This document shows, piece by piece, positions 1,463-43,592 of a stretch of 43,592 bases of DNA (within the stretch, counting starts at the first letter, position 1; each line of letters opens with the position of its first letter). Source of the DNA: a virus. Made by a program: the position numbers and the translations under genes. The notes beneath the pieces were generated by a model. It was not told the DNA's origin. It made no database searches and saw only the letters and a list, made by a program, of their open reading frames with translations. The stretch lies in IMG/VR virus record IMGVR_UViG_3300005573_000020, positions 1 to 43,592 of that record. One strand, given 5' to 3'.

Positions 1463-2935
1463 ATGATACCAAAAATAAATCAGGGTTGGACAATAACTAT
1501 AGGAGATAAAGGATGGGATGGTTATTGCCCTTCATATTTCGATAATTCCTATCCCTTTTACGGCAACAAAAATCAGGCATCTTATATGGTAGATGTCGAT
1601 ATTCGGGATCCAAATGTTTTAACTCAAGGAGCGGGAACGGCAAATCTAACCAATGGATCAGAAACGGGGGTAGTTTCAACATTGATTACCAGCATATTAA
1701 AAACTATAACCTCCTCGGATGTTTCATTCGTAATCGGAGGAGACAAGCTTTACAAAATAAGCTCCACCACCGTAGCCAGCGGGGGAACACCATCGTGGCC
1801 ATATACCATTACCGGAACAGGGGCAATAACTGGAAATGACATAGTTCATTATCGGGGAAAACTGCTATATTCCTATAACGACGCCGGTTTAAGCACTGGG
1901 AATATTGGATCATACGATTTGTCAACTACATTCGATGATGATTATTGGACCACAACTTGTAGCGGTTCGGCATTAGAAAACGCAGTTCATTATATGATTT
2001 TGGGAGGCGATGATTGCGTTTATATCACCAATGGACGATATATTGCCCGACTGGAAGGAACAACAGCAGCTGCCGCAGGATTAGATTTTTGGCAAGATTC
2101 AATAGTGGTTTCTTTAACATGGAATTACGATCGAGTAATTGCCGCGGTTAATCGGCCAAATATTAGCGGCTCAAATTTCAACCAATCAAGCATTTATCAA
2201 TGGAACGGAATAAACTCAACATGGGATTCAAACCCGGTAATGGTCAATGGAGAAATAGGGGCATTGTATACCAAAAACGGAGTAACATTTGTTTGGTGGA
2301 AAGATGCCACCACAACCGGAGGATATAATCTTGGATATTTAAATGGATTGCAGGTAACTCAATTGAGAACATATTCAGGATCACTGCCAAATCAATCGCA
2401 GGTAGGAGAATATGATGGTCATCTGGCTTGGATTTCAAGTGGAGCATTAGAATTATGGGGAGCAAAAGACAGGGGCACGGTAAGAATGTTTCCGTATATG
2501 ACTTCAAAATTGTCTACCGCCGGAGCATTTGCTGCACCATTCGGAACCCCATTAATCTCTTCAACCGACGGAGCAGGTGCCTACTGCATATCAAAAGCAT
2601 CGGGATATTCAAAAAACGCAGCATATCACACAATAGCTTATCCGGTAAGCGGACCTACATATAAAAGCCAAATTGATGGAATATTCGTGGAAACCGAACA
2701 AATGTCAAGCGGGGCAAAATGTGATATTACATTTTCGTATGATAAGGCAAAATCTTCATTGGCACTAACTCAAATCGCATATTCGGCCGCAAATAAAACA
2801 AGACATAAAATCTACGATGGCGGATTGCAGGTGGAGGACTTTCGTCTGGATCTCTCGTGGGCCAACGGAAGTGCAACCAACCCCTGCAAGATAAAAAAAA
2901 TTATGATTTTTGGACACTATATAAAGGATACTTAA
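1463..2935 (+). CDS. Virion structural protein (tail-associated, 490 aa)
   Basis: Long ORF tightly packed in the structural block with GGAG 8 nt upstream. No diagnostic motif. Confidence 0.6.
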   Translation: MIPKINQGWTITIGDKGWDGYCPSYFDNSYPFYGNKNQASYMVDVDIRDPNVLTQGAGTANLTNGSETGVVSTLITSILKTITSSDVSFVIGGDKLYKISSTTVASGGTPSWPYTITGTGAITGNDIVHYRGKLLYSYNDAGLSTGNIGSYDLSTTFDDDYWTTTCSGSALENAVHYMILGGDDCVYITNGRYIARLEGTTAAAAGLDFWQDSIVVSLTWNYDRVIAAVNRPNISGSNFNQSSIYQWNGINSTWDSNPVMVNGEIGALYTKNGVTFVWWKDATTTGGYNLGYLNGLQVTQLRTYSGSLPNQSQVGEYDGHLAWISSGALELWGAKDRGTVRMFPYMTSKLSTAGAFAAPFGTPLISSTDGAGAYCISKASGYSKNAAYHTIAYPVSGPTYKSQIDGIFVETEQMSSGAKCDITFSYDKAKSSLALTQIAYSAANKTRHKIYDGGLQVEDFRLDLSWANGSATNPCKIKKIMIFGHYIKDT

Positions 2936-2950
2936 TAATTAATAAATAAT

Positions 2951-4156
2951 ATGCCCATATATACAAGAGCAACACTCAAAACAGATGTTGCCGCCATAAT
3001 TAGCGGAACGGTTTCGGACACCAATTTAAATACTTTAGCCAACAAAGCAGTAAGAGACGTTTTGGTAGAAATAGACATTGCTTCGGCAAAAAGAAGAGCG
3101 GTTTTGTCGCCGAACATGTTCGATGACATTTATCAATACACCTGCCCTAGCGATTTAAAATCACAAAAAATCATTGATGTCAAGCCACAAATAAATAGAG
3201 GATTATTCGATAGCTGGACTCTCGTAACCGAAGAAGAATTTGATCGCCGAAAAGAAGATCACCGGTTAGATAGATACGGAGACCCGATAAACGTTCAAAG
3301 CTCGGAATGGATCGGAGCAAATCTTGTGGCCATCTCTTACCGGGATATGATCAAGAAAATTCTGATTTCCAGACCGATTGACGATAAACATCTAACAATT
3401 GATGATTTAGATGCAGTCGGAGATTGGAAAGCATTCGGAGATGGCACTAATTTAACAAAAGACGCAGACAATTATGTCAAGGGGTCGGCTTGTATTAACT
3501 GGGACATTAACGCAGACGGGGGAACAACCGCAGGCATATACAATGATTCATTGAACGAATTTGATATTAGCGATTACAAGGGAACCGGATCGGCATTTGT
3601 TTGGGTATACATCACCAGCACCACCAACTTGACAAACTTTATATTACGTATTGGTAGCAGTTCATCGGCATATTACTATATAACCGTAACAACAAATAAC
3701 GAAGGAAATTCCTTTGAAGCGGGTTGGAATCTCCTTCGTTTTGATTTTGCGAACAAATCAACCAACGGAACGCCCGATGACGACGCCTGCACTTATGTGG
3801 CTCTTTATATGACAAAAGCCGCAACCAAAATCAGCGAGACCGATTACAGATTTGACTGGTTGGTATTAAAACGAGGCAATCATTATTATGTGGTTTATTA
3901 TTCGAAGTATGGATGGCAAACTTCTGCCGCAGCATATTTGGAAAATTCAACCGCGGATACCGATTATCTGAATCTAGATACCGACGAATACGAATTGGTT
4001 CTTGAAAAATATGCTGAATTATGCGAAAAACATCTCAAGAATTTTGATGAAGCAAAAATTCATAAAGAAGCATATACGGAACTGGCATCAAAATACATCT
4101 TGGATAATCCAAGCGAAGTTAGGCCATTAATTCAAACTTATCACATGATGGAATAA
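2951..4156 (+). CDS. Virion structural protein (401 aa)
   Basis: Long ORF in the structural block. Function inferred from context only. Confidence 0.6.
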   Translation: MPIYTRATLKTDVAAIISGTVSDTNLNTLANKAVRDVLVEIDIASAKRRAVLSPNMFDDIYQYTCPSDLKSQKIIDVKPQINRGLFDSWTLVTEEEFDRRKEDHRLDRYGDPINVQSSEWIGANLVAISYRDMIKKILISRPIDDKHLTIDDLDAVGDWKAFGDGTNLTKDADNYVKGSACINWDINADGGTTAGIYNDSLNEFDISDYKGTGSAFVWVYITSTTNLTNFILRIGSSSSAYYYITVTTNNEGNSFEAGWNLLRFDFANKSTNGTPDDDACTYVALYMTKAATKISETDYRFDWLVLKRGNHYYVVYYSKYGWQTSAAAYLENSTADTDYLNLDTDEYELVLEKYAELCEKHLKNFDEAKIHKEAYTELASKYILDNPSEVRPLIQTYHMME

Positions 4157-4158
4157 AT

Positions 4159-6432
4159 ATGGCAGAACTCTTTGAGGAAAACATAATTACACCCCAAACC
4201 CTCAACGAAATTTTAGGCGGTATGTCTTCTCTGGGGGGATTAGAAGTAGCAGAATCAACGCCCACAGCAACTGGTAACGTCATGGTAAATCCCACAATAA
4301 TCGGCGGAACACTTGACGGAGTATCATACAAATCATCGAGTAGCGAAGCGAAATTGGAGATATTTCCTTCTTGGGACAAGACAATAGGACAGATTGTCAA
4401 AAGTGCATCCGGAACGACAGTTTTCAAAATTGAAATAGATGGAACAAATGCTGGAGACATTACGATCGGAAACTATGCGGGAAATCAGGGAATATTATGG
4501 GACCAATCGGCCGGAACATTAACGGTAAAAGGGGGAGTTGCAGTAGGTTATTTAGACATTCCGGATACGGTAACGGAAGATTCTTTTCATGTTGATTCAT
4601 CGGGAAATACTTGGTGGGGATCACCCGAATTAGCAACTGCACCAGCGAAAATTTTAAATACGGGAGAAGCAACTTTTACAAATGTAACCGCTACCCAATA
4701 TTTTGCTTGGAATGCCGATGTATTTCAATTAAAAGGAATAGTAAGTTTAGTTGGCACATTACAACTTCATTCATTTACCGTCGCAACATTACCAACCGGG
4801 GCAACTTCAACGGGAGCAAAAAGCCCTACCGCTATCGGAAATGATCTTTGGACCAATCCAACCCATGCTTATTACAGCGACAATGTATATGCAACCACAA
4901 ATCTAAGCGGATTAATACAAATCTATAAAACATGGGGAAATAATATTCCCGCCAATTCATATATAAATGGATTATTGGTAAGTGTTGAAGGACATACCGA
5001 CAAAGATGGTGTTGAATTATGGGTTCAACTTTCTTGGGACGGAGGAACCAATTGGACAATTAGCAAAATAGCAACTCTTAATAATGGAGGAGATACAATT
5101 ATTACATTCGGAGGACCAACCGATAATTGGAATCGTCTTTGGACTGATTCGGAATGTAGTGATGCCAATTTATTTGTAAAGATTCAAATGCAAGATTACG
5201 GGGCAGGAGCAACCGCATATGTAGACCATATTACTCTGAATGTTTATTATTATGACAACATGGAGAACCCGGTCGCAGGTGGTTCTTTGGCTTATGTATC
5301 TGATGGACAGAAAGCAGGAGAAACCAGTAACGGAACTGGGAATCTGGCCTTCTATGATGTTAATGGTAATTGGATAGCGGTTGATACGGGGAATCAAATC
5401 AATGCCAACATTGGAACAAAAATTCAATCCCTTGATTCAGATCCAACATCGCCATCGACGGGACAATTTTTCTTCGGAAGCGTAAATGCGAAATTCAGGG
5501 GATACGATGGTGCTAGTTGGAAAGATTTGGCTTGGACGGATGATTTGGCCGATTATGCGAAAGAAATCGCAAGTCCGTCTGATACATTACAACTTAGCAA
5601 TGATACGGAAACCGATAATATCTGGGCGGGATGGGATGCGTGGACAGAAGCAGATGCGATTACATCAACCGTCGCAGGAAAAATCCGAGTTAAATGGGAT
5701 ATTAGAAAATTGTCTGCCAATGCTTATCCCGTATATTCAAAAGTTTATGTAAACGATGTTGCTGTTGGTTCTGCGAACGAACACAATTCTACTTCTTATT
5801 CAACCTATACAGAAATGAGCGTTGATGTAAATGTTGGCGACGAAATTGAAATATATGTTTTGGGAGACCCCGCAACTTCTAATAGTAATAGTATCAGAAT
5901 TAGAAACCTCCGATTGTATTGGGACTTATCAACAAAGGGATATATAGATGCAGGAGACGATACTCCAAAATTTAATGATATAGATTATTATGCAAGCGAT
6001 ACATTAAGACAAAGCAACGATACAGACAAATATACTGCTTCTCAATCTGTTTATGCCAAAGTAAAAGAAATAAAGGTAACGGCGGGAACTCTTACAAATT
6101 GCAGAATTAAATTTGATTTAGCCAGCGGAGGCACTCCAAATTTTGTCAAAGCAAAAATTTATAAAAATGGAACAGCCATTGGAACAGAACGGACTTCCAC
6201 ATCGAGTAGTTACGCAACTTATTCAGAAGATTTTACAATAGATTTTACAACCAATGATTTAATTCAAATCTATGCTTATACGGACAATCCAAGTTATCCT
6301 GCCCATGTTAGAAATTTCAGAATTTATTATGATTATGGAGTTACGAAGTTAGACGGATTGGCATTGGCAACAGAAATTCCCATTGCAACTGCCGACTTGC
6401 CAACCCTTACTTTTACCAATCAAGACCCATAA
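4159..6432 (+). CDS. Tail/receptor-binding structural protein with two tandem C-terminal modules
   Basis: 757-aa Gly/Thr/Asn-rich ORF. Two homologous modules of about 110 aa each start SDTL(Q/R)xSNDT and end R(N)(L/F)R(L/I)YxD (about 5575-5926 and 5993-6335). Confidence 0.6.
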   Translation: MAELFEENIITPQTLNEILGGMSSLGGLEVAESTPTATGNVMVNPTIIGGTLDGVSYKSSSSEAKLEIFPSWDKTIGQIVKSASGTTVFKIEIDGTNAGDITIGNYAGNQGILWDQSAGTLTVKGGVAVGYLDIPDTVTEDSFHVDSSGNTWWGSPELATAPAKILNTGEATFTNVTATQYFAWNADVFQLKGIVSLVGTLQLHSFTVATLPTGATSTGAKSPTAIGNDLWTNPTHAYYSDNVYATTNLSGLIQIYKTWGNNIPANSYINGLLVSVEGHTDKDGVELWVQLSWDGGTNWTISKIATLNNGGDTIITFGGPTDNWNRLWTDSECSDANLFVKIQMQDYGAGATAYVDHITLNVYYYDNMENPVAGGSLAYVSDGQKAGETSNGTGNLAFYDVNGNWIAVDTGNQINANIGTKIQSLDSDPTSPSTGQFFFGSVNAKFRGYDGASWKDLAWTDDLADYAKEIASPSDTLQLSNDTETDNIWAGWDAWTEADAITSTVAGKIRVKWDIRKLSANAYPVYSKVYVNDVAVGSANEHNSTSYSTYTEMSVDVNVGDEIEIYVLGDPATSNSNSIRIRNLRLYWDLSTKGYIDAGDDTPKFNDIDYYASDTLRQSNDTDKYTASQSVYAKVKEIKVTAGTLTNCRIKFDLASGGTPNFVKAKIYKNGTAIGTERTSTSSSYATYSEDFTIDFTTNDLIQIYAYTDNPSYPAHVRNFRIYYDYGVTKLDGLALATEIPIATADLPTLTFTNQDP

Positions 6433-26621: not shown

Positions 26622-27071
26622 ATGGACAAAGAACAACAAATTGCTGAAAATACAGCAGAAATACAACACAAAAAGAAAGTTCCGGGAAGGCCATTCGTGA
26701 AAGGTCAATCAGGCAATCCCAAAGGAAAACCAAAGGGAGCAATTTCACTTACTTCAGCTATTAAAAGAAAATTAAAAGAATTGCCTCCGGGAAAAGATAA
26801 AACTTATTTGGAATATATTGTTTCGCAAATACTAAGTCGAGCCGCCGTTGATGGCGATACGCAAATGATAAAAACAGTTTGGAGTTACATAGACGGAATG
26901 CCAAAACAATCCATAGATTTAAGCGGAGATTTGAGAATTAAAACATTACGACAAATCGCCGAAAACACAAAAAAAATAGCAGAAGAAAAATATGATGAAC
27001 CCTCAGGAGATGTACAAAATCAAACAGGAAGTAGCAACGAAGTTCAAGAACAGCAAGGGGGAACCGTTTAG
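26622..27071 (+). CDS. Terminase small subunit candidate (DUF5681-like)
   Basis: PGRPFVKGQSGNPKGKPKGA motif. Immediately upstream of, and overlapping, the large terminase gene. Confidence 0.55.
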   Translation: MDKEQQIAENTAEIQHKKKVPGRPFVKGQSGNPKGKPKGAISLTSAIKRKLKELPPGKDKTYLEYIVSQILSRAAVDGDTQMIKTVWSYIDGMPKQSIDLSGDLRIKTLRQIAENTKKIAEEKYDEPSGDVQNQTGSSNEVQEQQGGTV

Positions 27072-28461
27072 ATTAACCGATGGGCAAGCAGAATTATTTG
27101 CTCTGATTTTTAAAAAGAAATATCCGAGAAATCACATTGAAACACACACCCGTTATGGAAAATCAGACGTAATCTCAATGGCGGTATTGGACAGAGTAAA
27201 TACTTATCCGGAGAAATGGGCAATCGTGGCCGGCAACAAAGAAAAGGCGGGAATCATAATGAGCTACGCAATCGGCCACATCTTTGATAACGAATTTTTT
27301 AGGCAACAATTCATAATTGAAAAAGGCGAAAGCGAAGAAAACATCCGGAGATACAGAAACAAAAGCAGGATAAACTTTGACTTGGGAGATGGAAGAATGG
27401 GCGAGATATTTATTACAACCGCAGAAGGAGCAATGGGATTCGGCGCCCCAAATGTAATCGAGGATGAAAGTGCATTGATTGGCGCAAAAGACCACGCATT
27501 GGTAATGAGAATGCTCGGAGACCAGCCGAAAAACTTTCTGGTGAAAGTGGGAAATCCATGGGAGAGCGAACACTTTGATAAATCAAGAGAAGATCCGGCA
27601 TATCACAAGCTCATAATCGATTACCGGCAAGGAATTCGGGAAGGAAGATTGACGCCGGCATACGTAGACGAAATGAGAAAACAGCCATTCTTTGATGTGC
27701 TTTACGAATGCAAAAGAGCAAGCTCAACAACAATGGATGAGAAAGCATGGATACCATTATTTACCCGTGAAGAAATTGAAAGGGCAATGATCGACCACGC
27801 AGAAGGATTTGGAATTAATAAGTTAGGAGTAGACGTAGCGGGTGGAGGCAGAGCATTCAGCACCATCGTGCAAAGATACAGCAATGTGGCAGTCAAACGC
27901 CACAAATCTAAAGATCCGGACACCATGAACTTGGCCGAGAAAGTAATGACCATGGCCAAAGACGAAAGCCGAGACCGAAAATACAAAATAAGACCAAATG
28001 ATATTTTTGTAGATAGCGTGGGACTGGGCAAAGGAGTTTACGATATTTTAAACAGAAATATGCCCGGAGTTTACGGAGTGAATGGCGGGGAAAAGCCAAC
28101 CACAAAAGAAAATGAATCAAGATTTGTCAATCAGCGGGCCGAATTTTATTGGGCTTTAAAAATGTGGATTTCAAATGGCGGAAAACTTTTAAAAGATGAT
28201 GATTGGTTTGAACTTTTAAGAATTAAATATCGCACCAAACTGGAGGGCACAAGAGGAAAAATGATTATTATATCCAAAGAGGAGATGGCCCGCGAAGGAA
28301 TAGATAGTCCGGATGTTGCAGATGCCCTAATGATGACATTTAGAACCGACGATATTCCGCCAATGGATCAATTTCATCAAGAATATTTAACATATAAAGA
28401 AGCATTAGAAGAGGGAGCGGTTCCCGGATGGGATCCGATGCACCCCTTCAAGAATTTTTAA
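26992..28461 (+). CDS. terL: Terminase large subunit
   Basis: Walker A-like THTRYGKSD, Walker B NVIEDES, and nuclease-domain motifs LGVDVAGGG, FVDSVGLGKGVYD and DSPDVADALMM. Confidence 0.9.
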   Translation: MMNPQEMYKIKQEVATKFKNSKGEPFRLTDGQAELFALIFKKKYPRNHIETHTRYGKSDVISMAVLDRVNTYPEKWAIVAGNKEKAGIIMSYAIGHIFDNEFFRQQFIIEKGESEENIRRYRNKSRINFDLGDGRMGEIFITTAEGAMGFGAPNVIEDESALIGAKDHALVMRMLGDQPKNFLVKVGNPWESEHFDKSREDPAYHKLIIDYRQGIREGRLTPAYVDEMRKQPFFDVLYECKRASSTTMDEKAWIPLFTREEIERAMIDHAEGFGINKLGVDVAGGGRAFSTIVQRYSNVAVKRHKSKDPDTMNLAEKVMTMAKDESRDRKYKIRPNDIFVDSVGLGKGVYDILNRNMPGVYGVNGGEKPTTKENESRFVNQRAEFYWALKMWISNGGKLLKDDDWFELLRIKYRTKLEGTRGKMIIISKEEMAREGIDSPDVADALMMTFRTDDIPPMDQFHQEYLTYKEALEEGAVPGWDPMHPFKNF

Positions 28462-33254: not shown

Positions 33255-33258
33255 ATGT

Positions 33259-33330
33259 GGCGGGATGGAGAAGTAGTATCTCGGCCGGCTCATAATCGGC
33301 AGATCACAGGTGCAAATCCTGTTCCCGCAA
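33259..33330 (+). tRNA. tRNA-Met-like gene (anticodon CAT), non-canonical
   Basis: Hand-folded cloverleaf: acceptor GGCGGGA/TCCCGCA (G1 x A72 mismatch). D arm GAGA-AGTAGTA-TCTC. Anticodon arm GCCGG-CTCATAA-TCGGC. Variable loop AGATC. T arm ACAGG-TGCAAAT-CCTGT. Deviations: G at position 55, no GG in the D loop, no encoded CCA. Confidence 0.5.
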
Positions 33331-33471
33331 TCACGATCCGCGACAGTGTCAAAAGACGCGGACCCAACATTCGCAGAGAAGCGTAATCTCGTTGGAAGCA
33401 GCACCTTTAAAATAGTTATTGGTCGAATAACGAAATAAAGTTAGGCTGATAACAACTAAACAACCATACAA

Positions 33472-33899: not shown

Positions 33900-34820
33900 A
33901 TGACTGAACTAAACACAATAAGTTTAAATGATTTTGTCAAATTGGCCACCGTGATCTGGATCAAAGGAGCAACGTCGGTCAAGAACTACATGCGGGATTC
34001 GGGAATGGTTCGGGAAATGACGATTCCAGAGAATACTGGAAATACCAGAGAATTCTCCGAAATCGACACCAACGAGTATTTAAGTTATAAGGGGCAAGGC
34101 GATCAAGCCGCTCGGGGCAAGGTTCAACAGGGTTATTCCAAGACCATGACCGCCTATCGAGTAGCCGAAAACATCGGAATTACTTATGAGATGAGAACAC
34201 AAAATAAGTATCCCGAAGTTGTAAGCCAATTACTTAATGGCGGAATGAAGGGTCCGAATACCATTGATCTTGACTTGAGTTTAAGATTGTCCTTTGGTGC
34301 AAGCACAAGCTATACCGACAGAGATGGCAGAACCATTGATACAACCGTCGGCGATGGCTATCAGCTATTTTACACCGCCCACACACTCGCAGGATCTTCA
34401 ACGACCTTCCGAAACCGTTTGGCCAACAATCCTAGACTTTCAAAAGGAGCATTAGAAGCGATTGAAAGACAGGCAATCGAAAATACCTATAACCACTTAG
34501 GCGAGAAAAAGACCATCCCATTTGACATCCTTTGGACCACAGATGATCCAAATACCGTAAATACAGCACAGGAATATCTAAAATCCGTTGCAAGCCCGGA
34601 AGCTACTCATGCCGGAGTAACCAATGTTTATGCCGGAAAGTATAAACACGTGGTTCTTCCGAGAGTGGCACTGACAGCAACGGGAGCACCCGATACAACC
34701 AAGCGTTATTATTGGGGAATTGCTTCATCGCAATTAACTTCATTCATGCTTGGTATTTGGGAAGCTCCACACATGATTCCTCCAACCGAGGGATCAAATG
34801 GCGAAGATGTCCAAACCGAT
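33900..34820 (+). CDS. Major capsid protein, exon 1 (predicted; 307 codons)
   Basis: Position after the scaffold gene; the predicted spliced product is 336 aa. Coding character stops at ...GEDVQTD, after which the sequence becomes a chain of tetraloop hairpins. The 5' splice site after T34820 is supported by a P1 pairing. Confidence 0.6.
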
Positions 34821-35539
34821 AATTCTCAATTGTCGCTTTTAGGAGAAATCCTAATTGAAAAATTCCGTAAATTCAGGGAACATCTTAACTTAACAGTTAA
34901 GACAATCCTGAGCCAAGCCAGATTATATCTGGAAGGTGCAACGACCATAGACGGAACACCCTTCGGGGTGATGAGATGGCCTGAACTATGCAGTAATGCA
35001 TAGAGCAAGGTAGAAATATCCTTGCCTTACAACCCCTTATGCGTGATAATGAAAGAATATGCCAAGAAAAAAAGATTACAAAAAATATAGAGAACAAACA
35101 ATTAGATACAATAAAGAATGGGCGAAAAGAAACCCAGAAAAAGTGAAGGAATACAATAGAAAGTATCGTCAAACCGAAGCAAGAAAGAAAAGTGTAGAAA
35201 AATATGATAAATCAGAAAAAGGTAGAAAAAGGAGAAAGGAATGGTATAAAAGGACGGGAAAATATACAGAATATACGCATAAAAGAAGGGCTATAATCAA
35301 AAATCTTACAGAACATTTCACTTTGTCAGAATGGGAAGAATTGAAGAAAAAATGGAATTACAGATGTCTGGCCTGTGGCAAACAAGAGCCAGAAATAAGA
35401 TTGACCCCAGACCACATAATTCCATTAAAAGTAGGAGGTAAAAATACGATAGATAATATTCAACCTCTTTGTAGCAGATGCAATTCAAGAAAAAACATAA
35501 AGATTATTGATTATAGGTTAATTGTAAAGTAACAAATTG
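34821..35539 (+). mobile_element. Group I-like intron carrying an HNH homing-endonuclease ORF (predicted)
   Basis: P1 is CGAT(34817-20)/GTCG(34832-35) with a U-G wobble at the splice site. P10 is GATTGGGA(35540-47)/TCTCAATT(34824-31). The last intron nucleotide is G35539. Hairpins carry GAAA (twice), UUCG and GUAA loops. The HNH ORF is internal. Confidence 0.6.
35059..35532 (+). CDS. HNH homing endonuclease (intron-encoded)
   Basis: CLACGKQEPEIRLTPDHIIPLKVGGKNTIDNIQPLCSRCNSRKN is a classical HNH motif with flanking CxxC pairs. The N-terminal half is Lys/Arg-rich. Confidence 0.85.
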   Translation: MPRKKDYKKYREQTIRYNKEWAKRNPEKVKEYNRKYRQTEARKKSVEKYDKSEKGRKRRKEWYKRTGKYTEYTHKRRAIIKNLTEHFTLSEWEELKKKWNYRCLACGKQEPEIRLTPDHIIPLKVGGKNTIDNIQPLCSRCNSRKNIKIIDYRLIVK

Positions 35540-35629
35540 GATTGGGACTTCCGAAATCGAGCCGGATACGGCATCGTTATTGTGGGAGCAAATTGGATTC
35601 ATTTCTCTTCCGGTGATGCCACAGCATAA
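35540..35629 (+). CDS. Major capsid protein, exon 2 (predicted; 29 codons plus stop)
   Basis: Start-less ORF DWDFRNRAGYGIVIVGANWIHFSSGDATA* with beta-strand-like composition. It joins in frame to exon 1. Confidence 0.55.
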   Translation, partial: DWDFRNRAGYGIVIVGANWIHFSSGDATA

Positions 35630-35778: not shown

Positions 35779-36774
35779 ATGTTCGAAAATCAACTTAGTA
35801 GATATGGTGCGATTGCAAAGGTTATCACGGATCTTGGACCAACCGGAAAAGTATTCTTTGCGGTAAGCAACAGTGATACAATTTACTCCGATTTCTTATA
35901 TGAATTTCCGAATGACAAAGATGGCGTACCTCGTGTTTATTCAACGATTCAAGGAGCACTTGACGCTTGCGTAGACGGTCGAGGCGATGTTGTTTTGGTT
36001 CTTCCAAGACAGGTTGACCAAACAGACACCGATCCGGGAGACTGGGCAGAAACATTGACAATGAATAAAGCAGGAGTTTCTCTTATCGGAATTTCCAATA
36101 ACAGAACCCAAGGAGGACTTCCTCAAATCAAAATGGGATCAGGCTCAACGGCACTCTTGACGGTGGCCGCTCCAGGATGCACGATTAAGAATCTTGGATT
36201 TAACGGTGCAGGTTCAACCGGAGGCGGAATACTTTTAGACGACGATGGATCAACTAAAACTGCCTGGGGAACGACGATTGAGAATTGTCATTTCAAGAAC
36301 TGCAAGGGTTCAAGTGCTACCAATGCTGCTACCGGCGGGGCAATTCAATGGGCTTCGACCGGTGGGGGTTGGCAAGTAAGGATTAAAGGATGCAGATTTT
36401 ACAAGAATGTCGGCGATATAGTATTGCTCGGCACTTCCGAATCGGTTCCGCAGGATGTTATCATAGAAGACAATATCTTTTCGGGACCCGCGGCAAGTGT
36501 TGACTGCAATCTCTATTTAGCTGGTGGTTCGGGAATGAACGGAGTAATTATCAGAAATAACGTATTCACCGCATTCCCCGCACTTTCTTCTGGAACCAAT
36601 CTTACCTTTATTGTCGCCACCGGATGTATTGGAAGTTTAACCGGCAATCACTTTGCTTCAAATGGGAAGACATTCGGAGCGGCTGGCGATGTTCTTATTC
36701 CAACCACTCTTTTGATGGCTGCAAACTATCAGGAAAAATCAACTTCTGGCAGTGGTGAAATCTTTAGAACATAA
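35779..36774 (+). CDS. Right-handed beta-helix (pectate-lyase-like) virion protein
   Basis: STIQGALDACVDGRGDVVLVLP is an entry motif typical of parallel beta-helix proteins. Repeated G-x-x-I/L-x-N rungs (IENCHFKNC, IKGCRFYKN, IEDNIFSG, IRNNVFT). Confidence 0.6.
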   Translation: MFENQLSRYGAIAKVITDLGPTGKVFFAVSNSDTIYSDFLYEFPNDKDGVPRVYSTIQGALDACVDGRGDVVLVLPRQVDQTDTDPGDWAETLTMNKAGVSLIGISNNRTQGGLPQIKMGSGSTALLTVAAPGCTIKNLGFNGAGSTGGGILLDDDGSTKTAWGTTIENCHFKNCKGSSATNAATGGAIQWASTGGGWQVRIKGCRFYKNVGDIVLLGTSESVPQDVIIEDNIFSGPAASVDCNLYLAGGSGMNGVIIRNNVFTAFPALSSGTNLTFIVATGCIGSLTGNHFASNGKTFGAAGDVLIPTTLLMAANYQEKSTSGSGEIFRT

Positions 36775-41350: not shown

Positions 41351-43480
41351 ATGAAAAACATTCTACAATTTATTAAAAATCACGGCGGATATTGGTTCGG
41401 ACACTTGCCTTATATCAGACAGGCGATTGTTGCTATTGAAGATTGGATAAATAACAAGGGCAGACCGACTTGGGCTTGGAGGCATAAACTTGCTTGGGCA
41501 ATTCACTTGGCTACTGGAAATTCTATTTTTTACCTTGATTATGTCAATGGAAACGATTCTAACGATGGTTCTACTTGGGCTTTGGCTTGGAAAACCATCA
41601 CTAGTGGTGCTACGGCAGCAAGGATTGCTCCTGGCGATATTATCAGGATTGCTAAAAGTCCAGCACCGACCTCTATTGGAAATGCCACTTGGACTAACCT
41701 GTCAAAGACGGTTAGTTTGGCTTCGGCTCAAACTGCCAATATAGATAGGTGTGAAAGCGCTTGGACTGCTTCAACTAATGTTACAGCTACTACTTCAACA
41801 ACGAGAAAAGAAGGTAGTTATTCCGCGTCCCTTGCCATTGCCGCTGCCTTTACCACTGGTAAGGTTGCTTATAAATCCTTTTCCGCATTAAATTTGTCAA
41901 GTTACCAGAAAATTAGTTTTTGGATACAAAATAGTGCGGCAATCGCTTCGGCAACCGTTTTAAAGGTGGTTCTTTGTTCTGATACGACAGGAAATACTAT
42001 TGTTGATACTTTTTGGATACCAGCCATTCCTTCAACAAGCAGGTGGTTGCCCTTGACCCTTACAAAAGATGGTGGAGGAAACTTGGGGTCATCTATTCAG
42101 TCAATCGCTGTTTACGCTAATTCTGATCCAGGAACGATAACCCTACTGTTAGATGACTTTATCGCCTGCACTACTGACGGGCTTAATCTTCAAAGTTTGA
42201 TTTCTAAAAACTCTAATGAACAAGGTGGGACAGAGGGCTGGTATGGAATACAAAGCATAAATGGGACTACTGTTTTGCTGGATAATGACACAAATGTTGC
42301 AGCTAATGCTGGTAGGGGATATTCAGGAACTACGGAAACCGTAACCACTTATAAAAGGGAAACGATTCAAACTGCTTTGGCTTCGTCTTCTACAACAGCG
42401 GTTCAAGAAGTTCAAGATAGCGGAACTTCAGGAAACAATATACAATTTCAGGGTGGATATAATACTTCTACAACAGTTCAGGACGGCGAAACATTTTTTG
42501 ACGGGTTGAACGGAAATGGTTATGGACTTTATTTAAGTGGTAAATCCTATATTACTTTCAATTATCTTAATGTTTGTCGTTATAACTATGGGGTCTACTA
42601 CTCCAGCAGCAGCAACAACACCATCACTACTCTTTCAAATGCCAATAATAATAGCTACTATGGGGTCTGCTACTACAACAGCAGCAACAATTCCATCACT
42701 ACCCTTTCAAATGCTAATAATAACAGTTATGGGGTCTCCTACTCCAACAGCAGCAACAATTCCATCACTACCCTTTCAAATGCTAATAATAACAGTTATG
42801 GGGTCTACTACTCCAGCAGCAGCAACAACACCATCACTACCCTTTCAAATGCTAATAATAACGGTTATGGGGTTTACTACTACAACAGCAACAACAATAC
42901 TATCAAATCTTTATCAACTTCGGATAATGGAGCAACGGGAATTTATAATGATAAAGGAATAAATTATCTTTTTAATGCCTTAATTGCCGAAGCAACAGAA
43001 GTTTCAGGATATGCAAGTTTTGTCAATTCAAGGATTTTCTCAAACAAGCACGACCAAACCGCAGATAATCACGCAATCTTTACAGATGGAGGGCAGGTTC
43101 ATAGCACTACGGCAGTCAGGCATACAGCTTCGGGCATTGCTTGGAGAATAGATGTAACTTCAACAGATAGAAGTTCATTATATCCATTAGGTTTCAGCAT
43201 AGCCAAAATAGCTGTGGCGGCAGATAGTCAGGTAACAGTAAAAGCGTGGTTTAGAAGAACTAATACTGGAATTACGGGCAGGTTGATTTGTAAAGGCGGT
43301 CAAATTGCTGGGGTAAATAGCGATGTTTATGCCGATATGACAGCAGCAGCGGATACTTGGGAGGAATTAACAATAACATTTACCCCAACTGAAGCAGGAG
43401 TCGTGGAAATAGAAGCACAAGCTTGGGGGGGAACTACATACTCGGTCTATGTAGATGATATGACCATAACTCAAGCATAA
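41351..43480 (+). CDS. Tailspike-like protein with a parallel beta-helix repeat array
   Basis: YLDYVNGNDSNDGS...AWKTITSGA entry motif and an array of 23-aa rungs YGVYYSSSSNNTITTLSNANNNS. Confidence 0.7.
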   Translation: MKNILQFIKNHGGYWFGHLPYIRQAIVAIEDWINNKGRPTWAWRHKLAWAIHLATGNSIFYLDYVNGNDSNDGSTWALAWKTITSGATAARIAPGDIIRIAKSPAPTSIGNATWTNLSKTVSLASAQTANIDRCESAWTASTNVTATTSTTRKEGSYSASLAIAAAFTTGKVAYKSFSALNLSSYQKISFWIQNSAAIASATVLKVVLCSDTTGNTIVDTFWIPAIPSTSRWLPLTLTKDGGGNLGSSIQSIAVYANSDPGTITLLLDDFIACTTDGLNLQSLISKNSNEQGGTEGWYGIQSINGTTVLLDNDTNVAANAGRGYSGTTETVTTYKRETIQTALASSSTTAVQEVQDSGTSGNNIQFQGGYNTSTTVQDGETFFDGLNGNGYGLYLSGKSYITFNYLNVCRYNYGVYYSSSSNNTITTLSNANNNSYYGVCYYNSSNNSITTLSNANNNSYGVSYSNSSNNSITTLSNANNNSYGVYYSSSSNNTITTLSNANNNGYGVYYYNSNNNTIKSLSTSDNGATGIYNDKGINYLFNALIAEATEVSGYASFVNSRIFSNKHDQTADNHAIFTDGGQVHSTTAVRHTASGIAWRIDVTSTDRSSLYPLGFSIAKIAVAADSQVTVKAWFRRTNTGITGRLICKGGQIAGVNSDVYADMTAAADTWEELTITFTPTEAGVVEIEAQAWGGTTYSVYVDDMTITQA
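42589..42936 (+). repeat. Tandem 69-nt (one 72-nt) coding repeats, 5 units
   Basis: Units start at 42589, 42661, 42730, 42799 and 42868. Units 1 and 4, and units 2 and 3, share long identical stretches; unit 5 is diverged. Confidence 0.9.
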
Positions 43481-43592
43481 AAACTATGGAATTATCATTC
43501 AGAAAAATTTTAAGAAAAGAGCAAGATATGGCTGGCAAATGGCGGGTCTGGGTTGAGGTTGCCGATGGCGAGGCAGTGATATTAAAGTTTCA
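43472..43592. repeat. Terminal direct repeat, copy 2
   Basis: Exact copy of 1-121. It restarts the ORF that begins at position 15. Confidence 0.95.

Follow-up and report, generated by a model that had tools for sequence, protein, structure and literature searches.

The introns of phages SPO1/SP82, Bastille and Twort that carry HNH endonuclease genes occupy genes for DNA polymerase or nucleotide metabolism in large Firmicute myoviruses, and in the T4 nrdD (sunY) intron the core is located 5' of the endonuclease open reading frame (ORF), the distant 3' splice site being returned to it by 3'-domain pairings and by helix P10. The endonucleases of the former group, I-HmuI/II (SPO1/SP82), I-BasI (Bastille) and I-TwoI (Twort), are cited in PMC3984707 as HNH nicking enzymes of phage group I introns. 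Group I introns of phage capsid genes are described for the lactococcal phage Tuc2009 and the mycobacteriophage LittleE (Pope et al. 2013, PMC3706429); the LittleE intron follows a U, ends in G and was recognised via relatives without the intron, and its splicing was confirmed by reverse transcription PCR (RT-PCR) (PMC3706429). Multiple introns are on record for Twort orf142, which holds three (Landthaler and Shub 1999), and for the metagenomic Jug phages, with ∼18 group I introns per genome (PMC12880540). We analyzed a viral DNA of 43,592 nucleotides (nt), IMG/VR record IMGVR_UViG_3300005573_000020 (hereafter, the window), in which an original prediction made from the letters alone had proposed a major capsid gene split by a group I-like intron. 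Our analysis indicates that positions 34821–35539 are very probably a mobile group I intron that separates codons D307 and D308 in an HK97-fold major capsid gene.

The capsid gene of the window and the features of its intron are located on the plus strand. Exon 1 (33900–34820, 921 nt) comprises codons 1–307 and ends with GAA GAT GTC CAA ACC GAT, whereas exon 2 (35540–35629, 90 nt) comprises codons 308–336 and the stop codon at 35627–35629, and encodes the peptide DWDFRNRAGYGIVIVGANWIHFSSGDATA. The intervening 719 nt contain 15, 12 and 19 stop codons in the three frames and include a gene for a 157-amino acid (aa) HNH homing endonuclease (35059–35532), which has a G+C content of 31% vs 45–48% in the exons. 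Only 7 nt (35533–35539, CAAATTG) separate the stop of the HNH gene from the exon 2 frame of 29 codons. Joining 34820 to 35540 produces an in-frame product of 336 aa, with a predicted ligated junction formed by the exon 1 end ...CAAACCGAT and the exon 2 start GATTGGGACTT..., and since the flanking bases differ (A34821 vs G35540; T34820 vs G35539), this junction cannot be slid without altering the product. The unspliced ORF (33900–35003) encodes 367 aa including a read-through tail.

At E≤1e-3, 1658 homologues of the joined product were found, and among the 120 homologues listed nearly all are 333–340 aa long and align with a query coverage of 99–100%. Exon 1 is colinear with homologues of ∼335 aa up to D307, and the alignment continues colinearly across the junction EDVQTD|DWE/DFRNRAGYG, which ranks with the best-conserved parts of the family: T306 and D307 show no variation, and little or none is seen at D308, W309, F311, R312 and R314. 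The exon 2 peptide is the conserved C-terminal end in this family (DWE/DFRNRAGYG...SSGD..A). In a syntenic 43.7-kb contig (L003), the gene is uninterrupted across the site (...CAAACCGAC|GATTGGGAG...). The 60-aa tail that follows ...GEDVQTD (34820) in the read-through ORF aligns to no homologue, and its sequence differs in each of the intron variants described below. The original prediction had stated that this ORF stops resembling protein after ...GEDVQTD, that an HNH ORF and a peptide reading like a capsid C terminus follow at 35059–35532 and 35540–35629, and that the join of 34820 to 35540 is in frame. On each point the present data agree with it: all homologue similarity ends at 34820 and homologues are not colinear through the tail, the HNH ORF scores above the Pfam cut-offs, the peptide matches the conserved family end, the coordinates of the 336-aa join were checked on the sequence, and in the colinearity comparison that it had suggested it is the joined product that follows the homologues throughout, rather than the 367-aa read-through.

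The capsid assignment itself is based on the predicted fold. The joined protein matched no family in Pfam or PHROG scans, and a PF25209 tag carried by three of the capsid homologues was not reproduced, the label being set by fold instead. In 50,697 phage records, tblastn with the capsid protein produced no match; therefore, this collection contains no cultured relative of the capsid gene. An AlphaFold model of the joined product (49 homologues) reached a predicted local distance difference test score (pLDDT) of 83 and a predicted template-modelling score of 0.82. Foldseek comparison of the model with the PDB gave 364 matches (E≤1e-3); those at the top, with probability 1.00 and template-modelling scores of 0.42–0.53, were HK97-fold capsids (SU10, P-SCSP1u, HK97) or encapsulins. 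The exon 2 residues form two core β-strands of the model (308–321 and 327–330, pLDDT ∼90), thus a protein that lacks exon 2 would be an incomplete fold. We accept the gene product, on the evidence of this model, as an HK97-fold major capsid protein, which gives the label chosen in the original prediction, for which Pfam and PHROG offer no support, a structural backing.

An Rfam scan of the whole window at the curated gathering scores returned two matches, one tRNA and RF00028 (Intron_gpI). The RF00028 match covers 34811–35003 and all model positions (1–253 of 253) with a score of 82.1 bits (gathering score 50), and its E-value of 1.7e-19 places it far beyond chance. By blastn, the core is 70–78% identical over ∼120 nt to segments of Vibrio, Staphylococcus (Twort- and K-like), Pseudomonas KIL and other phages, and several of the matched phage records label the segment Intron_gpI or place it in split terminase, helicase or polymerase genes.

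Five other variants of the intron were found at the same site of diverged capsid alleles, through homologues of the HNH protein whose genes in each case interrupt a member of this capsid family after residue 307. Their HNH proteins are 82% (L053/L054), 76% (L061), 69% (L055/L056), 65% (L057/L058) and 65% (L059/L060) identical to that of the window, and the Rfam scores of L061, L055/L056, L057/L058 and L059/L060 are 85.6, 83.1, 90.5 and 77.4 bits, respectively; L053 aligns and pairs with the other variants despite a score below the gathering threshold. The HNH homologue P0123 is encoded in the residue-307 intron on the same contig as L049 (L061). In all six variants exon 1 ends with ...GAT, the intron ends with G (35539 in the window) and exon 2 directly begins with GAYTGGGA, and these shared boundaries, with the colinearity of the protein, allow the exact boundaries to be considered established; the intron length varies from 667 to 773 nt. 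In addition, a locus from JGI sample 3300009503 (L001) is 99.8% identical to the window locus over the 2.6 kb compared.

The secondary structure was assessed in an alignment of the window, L053, L055, L057 and L059, with P1 to P9.1 as the structure and P7 treated as a pseudoknot, L061 standing outside this alignment. Standard base pairs occupy 95.6% of the cells vs 35–43% when the partners are slid by 1–3 columns, and 31 of 62 pairs are changed on both sides. On four of five measures none of 500 shuffles reached the observed value, and 9 of 500 did so on the fifth (further pair types). One or more pairs are changed on both sides in each of the helices P1 to P9.1, and we regard the RNA structure as established.

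The core begins with P1 (34817–34823/34829–34835), in which U34820 and G34832 form the wobble pair of the 5' splice site, and P2 (34839–34844/34849–34854), a helix of 6 base pairs (bp) in which 3 of 6 pairs are changed on both sides and 100% of the cells pair; the five aligned variants close it with a GAAA loop, L061 with GUAA. P3 (34863–34868/34951–34956; 5 of 6 pairs changed on both sides) encloses P4 (34873–34878/34906–34911; 4 of 6), P5 (34883–34889/34896–34902; 3 of 7) and P6 (34918–34923/34927–34932, with an outer part at 34912–34914/34935–34937; 4 of 6). P7, the guanosine-binding helix (34943–34948/34976–34981), makes a pseudoknot with P3 and contains P8; 93% of its cells pair and two of its pairs are changed on both sides. 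The UUCG-capped P8 (34957–34961/34966–34970), supported by the Rfam model and by covariation, directly follows the 3' strand of P3, thus P7.1 and P7.2 are missing, as are P2.1 and P5abc, and the core is compact (∼190 nt). P9 (34986–34992/34997–35003; 4 of 7 pairs changed on both sides, 100% of cells paired) carries a GNRA loop in all six variants (GUAA, GCAA, GCGA, GAGA, GUGA and GUGA) and is followed by the P9.1 hairpin (35005–35010/35020–35025; 3 of 6). A candidate P9.0, formed by the UU before the terminal G and the AA of J7/9, was not long enough and is disrupted in L053 and L059, and no claim is made for it.

Most of the hairpin chain listed in the original prediction reappears in this structure: AGGA-GAAA-TCCT, CTTAAC/GTTAAG, CCAGAT/ATCTGG, CACCC-TTCG-GGGTG, CTATGCA-GTAA-TGCATAG and GCAAGG/CCTTGC correspond to P2, P5, P6, P8, P9 and P9.1, respectively. 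The hairpin AATT-GAAA-AATT (34853–34864) had to be dropped, since its bases are shared with P2 (3' strand) and P3 (5' strand), where they covary perfectly with their partners, and since the hairpin is broken in L057 and L059. Its P3-like helix between TTCAGG (34872–34877) and CCTGAA (34980–34985) is replaced by the P3 given above, as 34873–34878 form the 5' strand of P4 and 34980–34981 belong to P7. The core had been placed either wholly upstream of the HNH ORF or overlapping its 3' end; the catalytic core lies wholly upstream, which leaves the first option and removes the second. The Rfam check suggested there gave a group I match, and the U34820•G34832 pair, the terminal G35539 and the P10 pairing were all borne out, the wobble pair being placed independently by the covariance model.

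The splice sites are tied to the exons by the internal guide sequence (34824–34835). The covariance model alone builds P1 from 34815–34823 and 34829–34837, pairing U34820 with G34832, and a U•G pair at the 5' splice site is present in all five aligned variants. The 5' part of the guide (34824–34831) forms P10 with exon 2 bases 35540–35547; in the window this helix has 8 bp and −7.7 kcal/mol, a value equalled by only 1.6% of shuffled exon sequences, and in the four aligned relatives it has 5–7 bp. Both helices follow synonymous changes of the exons. The P1 pair 34817/34835 is C-G, G-C or A-U across the variants in accordance with the wobble base of the Thr-306 codon (codon/guide ACC/GUCG in the window, ACG/GUCC in L053 and L059, ACA/GUCU in L057). 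In P10, a compensatory U-A to C-G change occurs in L059, where exon 2 begins with GAC and the guide reads CGAUU, while the others have GAU with CAAUU. Covariation of the guide with synonymous exon positions is hard to explain unless the P1 and P10 pairings are used, and this co-variation provides strong indirect evidence for splicing at exactly these sites.

The intron ORF has the features of an HNH endonuclease. Over residues 103–148 it matches the Pfam families HNH (PF01844; 51.1 bits, cut-off 21.4) and HNH_5 (PF14279; 54.3 bits, cut-off 27.5), and its PHROG matches include many HNH and endonuclease VII families. The protein retains its two CxxC pairs and an intact DH...N...N motif, and the best matches of solved structure, PDB 4h9d (E 8e-7) and 5h0m, extend over the HNH motif only. 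No second copy of the protein was found in the window by tblastn.

The HNH ORF starts 3' of P9.1 (35025) and stops 7 nt before the terminal G, which is thus located ∼540 nt from the core. A tentative long-range helix, formed by UUACAA just after P9.1 (35027–35032) and UUGUAA in the last HNH codons (35522–35527), would loop out the HNH gene and set the terminal G at a distance of 12 nt from the helix. An equivalent of 5–10 bp can be drawn in all six variants (10 bp in L055), and one pair flips from A-U to U-A in L055 and L059.

The edges of the HNH gene vary between the relatives. In L059 the HNH frame (1749–2219) overruns the 3' splice site (2199|2200) and stops 20 nt inside capsid exon 2; therefore, the endonuclease gene overlaps the exon. 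In L053, L055, L057 and L059 the HNH start codon is located within a conserved ...CTTTTATG or ...GCTTATG segment, for which ATTATAGG, located toward the ORF's 3' end, is a possible pairing partner, and such pairing might sequester the start codon. The window (35035–35062) and L061 have ∼20 extra nt before the HNH start, as well as a second, out-of-frame ATG at 35039 (window coordinates). Free-standing HNH genes are present directly downstream of the capsid gene in L053 (3608–4030) and L054 (1748–2059; HNH_2) and in L061 (5174–5791; HNH/HNH_5), whereas a tblastn search with the intron HNH protein found no free-standing gene of this type downstream of the window capsid gene.

The distribution of the intron among capsid alleles is patchy. 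In a neighbour-joining tree of the capsid proteins, intron-bearing alleles fall into at least three separate clades and their nearest neighbours are uninterrupted: the window groups near P0002, L055 near P0072, and L053, L057 and L059 with P0015. None of ∼44 full-length capsid relatives in IMG/VR is interrupted at residue 307. Similarity of the HNH proteins does not parallel that of the capsid proteins; for instance, L057 has the capsid protein closest to that of the window, while its HNH protein is among the most distant. This distribution fits horizontal spread by homing, repeated loss, or both.

Taken together, the comparative data suggest the following course of events. The first ∼205 nt of the intron RNA (P1 to P9.1) would fold into a compact ribozyme, and an external guanosine bound in P7 would attack after U34820, held in P1 by its wobble with G34832. 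The guide sequence would next pair with the first 8 nt of exon 2 to form P10, while the helix 35027–35032/35522–35527 probably loops out the HNH gene and returns the distant 3' end to the core. The terminal G35539 would then take the place of the guanosine in P7, and exon ligation would yield the mRNA for the 336-aa capsid protein. By analogy with characterised phage intron HNH enzymes, the endonuclease may nick or cut uninterrupted alleles near ...CAAACCGAY|GAYTGGGA..., and repair of the cut allele of a co-infecting relative from the intron-bearing copy would spread the element.

Several observations count against a functional mobile intron in the window. Position 34944/34980 of P7, beside the presumed guanosine-binding G-C pair, is A·C in the window, where the four aligned relatives have A-U; this mismatch, which L001 shares, may weaken the guanosine-binding helix. 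The exact joined 336-aa protein has no entry in a collection of 15 billion proteins (exact look-up), and the variant with the closest HNH protein (L053/L054) has no group I match at the Rfam gathering score. For the long-range helix, shuffling of the window sequence alone gives no significance (p 0.18), and its support comes from one compensatory change. Finally, the presumed activity of the HNH endonuclease and its target are deduced only from the domain and the distribution of the intron. The P7 mismatch, together with the lack of both the spliced product and an identical uninterrupted allele in the protein collection, could also be explained by an intron that is real but decayed, so that the window copy would no longer splice and would belong to a defective phage with a capsid pseudogene. 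We consider such decay improbable, since the window copy matches the full model with a score within the range of its relatives (82.1 vs 77–90 bits), the other helices are all intact, P1 and P10 are fitted to the exons of its own allele, and exon 2 is intact, in frame and conserved. The sequence moreover recurs in several assemblies (the HNH cluster lists four contigs, and L001 is nearly identical), the terminal overlap of the window, 121 nt in length, suggests a complete, circulating genome, and an alternative register of P7 with a bulged A34944 possibly restores a standard helix.

Phage genes that are split by free-standing endonuclease genes and function as two polypeptides are known, and the capsid gene could in principle be expressed without RNA splicing, either as a 367-aa read-through capsid protein, which is indeed the ORF reported by gene callers (P0001/P0213), or as assembling polypeptides of 307 and 29 aa, the latter initiated at a TTG codon located in frame just 5' of exon 2 (35537). 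However, the TTG falls within the 3' terminus of the intron, and the 60-aa tail not only lacks homologues and varies between the variants but also coincides exactly with a full-scoring ribozyme and its covarying helices. Residues 308–336 provide two core β-strands of the HK97 model, and the covariation of P1 and P10 with exon bases would be left unexplained; we therefore regard expression without splicing as very improbable. Removal of the insert as an intein, by translational bypassing or as a group II intron has the lowest probability of all, and the stop codons of the insert together with the RF00028 match refute it. An endonuclease gene within an essential gene at a highly conserved motif is typical of inteins too, but the stop codons in all three frames of the insert, the presence of HNH domains only in the Pfam scan of the ORF (no intein/Hint domain and no reverse transcriptase), the absence of any group II family from the Rfam matches of the window at gathering scores, and a 719-nt length with U|...G| boundaries are in line with a group I intron.

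The residue-307 intron is one of several in this capsid gene family, in which at least five group I-type insertion sites were identified, near residues 79, 156, 202, 307 and 312; scores below 50 bits are under the Rfam threshold and mark the respective insertions as probable group I introns only. L057 has an ORF-less insertion within the invariant QQGY motif, near residue 79 (∼1827–2092, 42.1 bits), and an insertion is found nearby in L055 as well. At residue 156, the intron of L049/L061 (same contig; 50.2 bits) carries an HNH_3 ORF on the minus strand (L061 2484–3098). The residue-202 insertions of L045 (21 bits) and L061 (21.8 bits) are again below threshold, and that of L045 contains a LAGLIDADG-type ORF (3641–4237; ...LAGFIDGEG...). 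Insertions at residue 312 are present in L002, L045 and L057. In L045 (3001–5568) the insertion is ∼920 nt long and has an HNH-like ORF (5222–5485), and in L057 it scores 22.5 bits, with a P1 of UUCCGU/GCGGAA; Rfam gave nothing relevant for the L002 insertion, which is cut by the contig end. The residue-312 element is thus likely a group I intron, albeit with a sub-threshold score.

Two capsid genes contain three introns each. In L057 (1816–3834; also L058) they are located at QQGY, at residue 307 (2778–3541, 90.5 bits, with HNH) and at residue 312 (3557–3762, 206 nt), and in L061 (1824–5122) at residues 156, 202 and 307. The residue-307 and residue-312 introns of L057 are separated by a 15-nt exon, GATTGGGAGTTCCGT (DWEFR), which would therefore have to serve as the P10 partner of the upstream intron and the P1 partner of the downstream one. 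Different endonuclease families (HNH, HNH_3 and LAGLIDADG), or none, occur at different sites of one gene family. It can be speculated, with considerable doubt, that the capsid family of these uncultivated ∼43-kb phages is an unusually dense arena of homing elements, and that their endonucleases might then act as weapons between co-infecting relatives, a role demonstrated for the PhiPA3 intron endonuclease, and not purely as selfish passengers.

The window probably represents a complete, circularly assembled genome of ∼43.47 kb, as positions 1–121 are identical to 43472–43592. The large terminase gene (phrog_2, E 2.7e-18; 26992–28461) lies upstream of the capsid locus and shares its strand. 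A tRNA-Met gene (anticodon CAT) is found at 33258–33332 on the plus strand, ∼570 nt upstream of the capsid gene, and L001, L003 and L047 carry a tRNA gene at the equivalent position. Just downstream of the capsid gene, 35779–36774 (plus strand) encodes a right-handed β-helix protein (Pfam Beta_helix; weak PHROG match to tail spikes), an unusual direct neighbour for a capsid gene. Apart from the terminase and this protein, the genes around the capsid locus have no family matches in Pfam or PHROG.

The window intron is a well-supported but ordinary mobile element: capsid introns, HNH introns and genes with three introns are already established in phages, and our understanding of group I introns and homing endonucleases is unchanged by these results. 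Their main practical consequence is a corrected capsid annotation, as automated gene calling yields the 367-aa chimera and misses the 336-aa capsid protein, and the same error is found in every interrupted relative identified here. In addition, six natural variants at one site give clear compensatory evidence for each helix, including P1 and P10, which follow synonymous exon changes, and one capsid gene family of uncultivated phages is seen to have been invaded repeatedly.

As in Tuc2009 and LittleE, the intron interrupts the gene for the major capsid subunit of a tailed phage, and the LittleE intron also holds a homing-endonuclease gene. However, the LittleE endonuclease is LAGLIDADG-like and encoded on the opposite strand, whereas that of the window is an HNH enzyme encoded on the same strand. 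The LittleE intron was classified as 'most likely group I' (PMC3706429), while the window ribozyme scores well above the Rfam threshold and is supported by covariation; conversely, splicing was seen by RT-PCR in LittleE and is deduced from comparative data in the window. The Tuc2009 and LittleE capsid proteins are unrelated in sequence to the window capsid, as judged by the above tblastn search of phage records.

The introns of SPO1/SP82, Bastille and Twort resemble that of the window in the combination of a compact ribozyme with an HNH gene, in their location within a conserved stretch of an essential gene and in their patchy distribution, but the window intron resides in a capsid gene and its HNH protein has no close characterised relative. 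The T4 nrdD (sunY) intron shares with it a catalytic core located entirely 5' of the ORF and a 3' splice site hundreds of nucleotides away; in contrast, the window intron has neither P7.1 nor P7.2, and the helix that brackets its ORF is tentatively supported. Finally, like Twort orf142 and the Jug genomes, the capsid relatives L057 and L061 accumulate introns, three per gene, in which ORF-less forms of ∼200–270 nt and endonuclease-bearing forms are mixed; the window gene itself has a single intron, and the host of these elements is the capsid gene of ∼43-kb genomes rather than a gene of jumbo or Twort-like phages.

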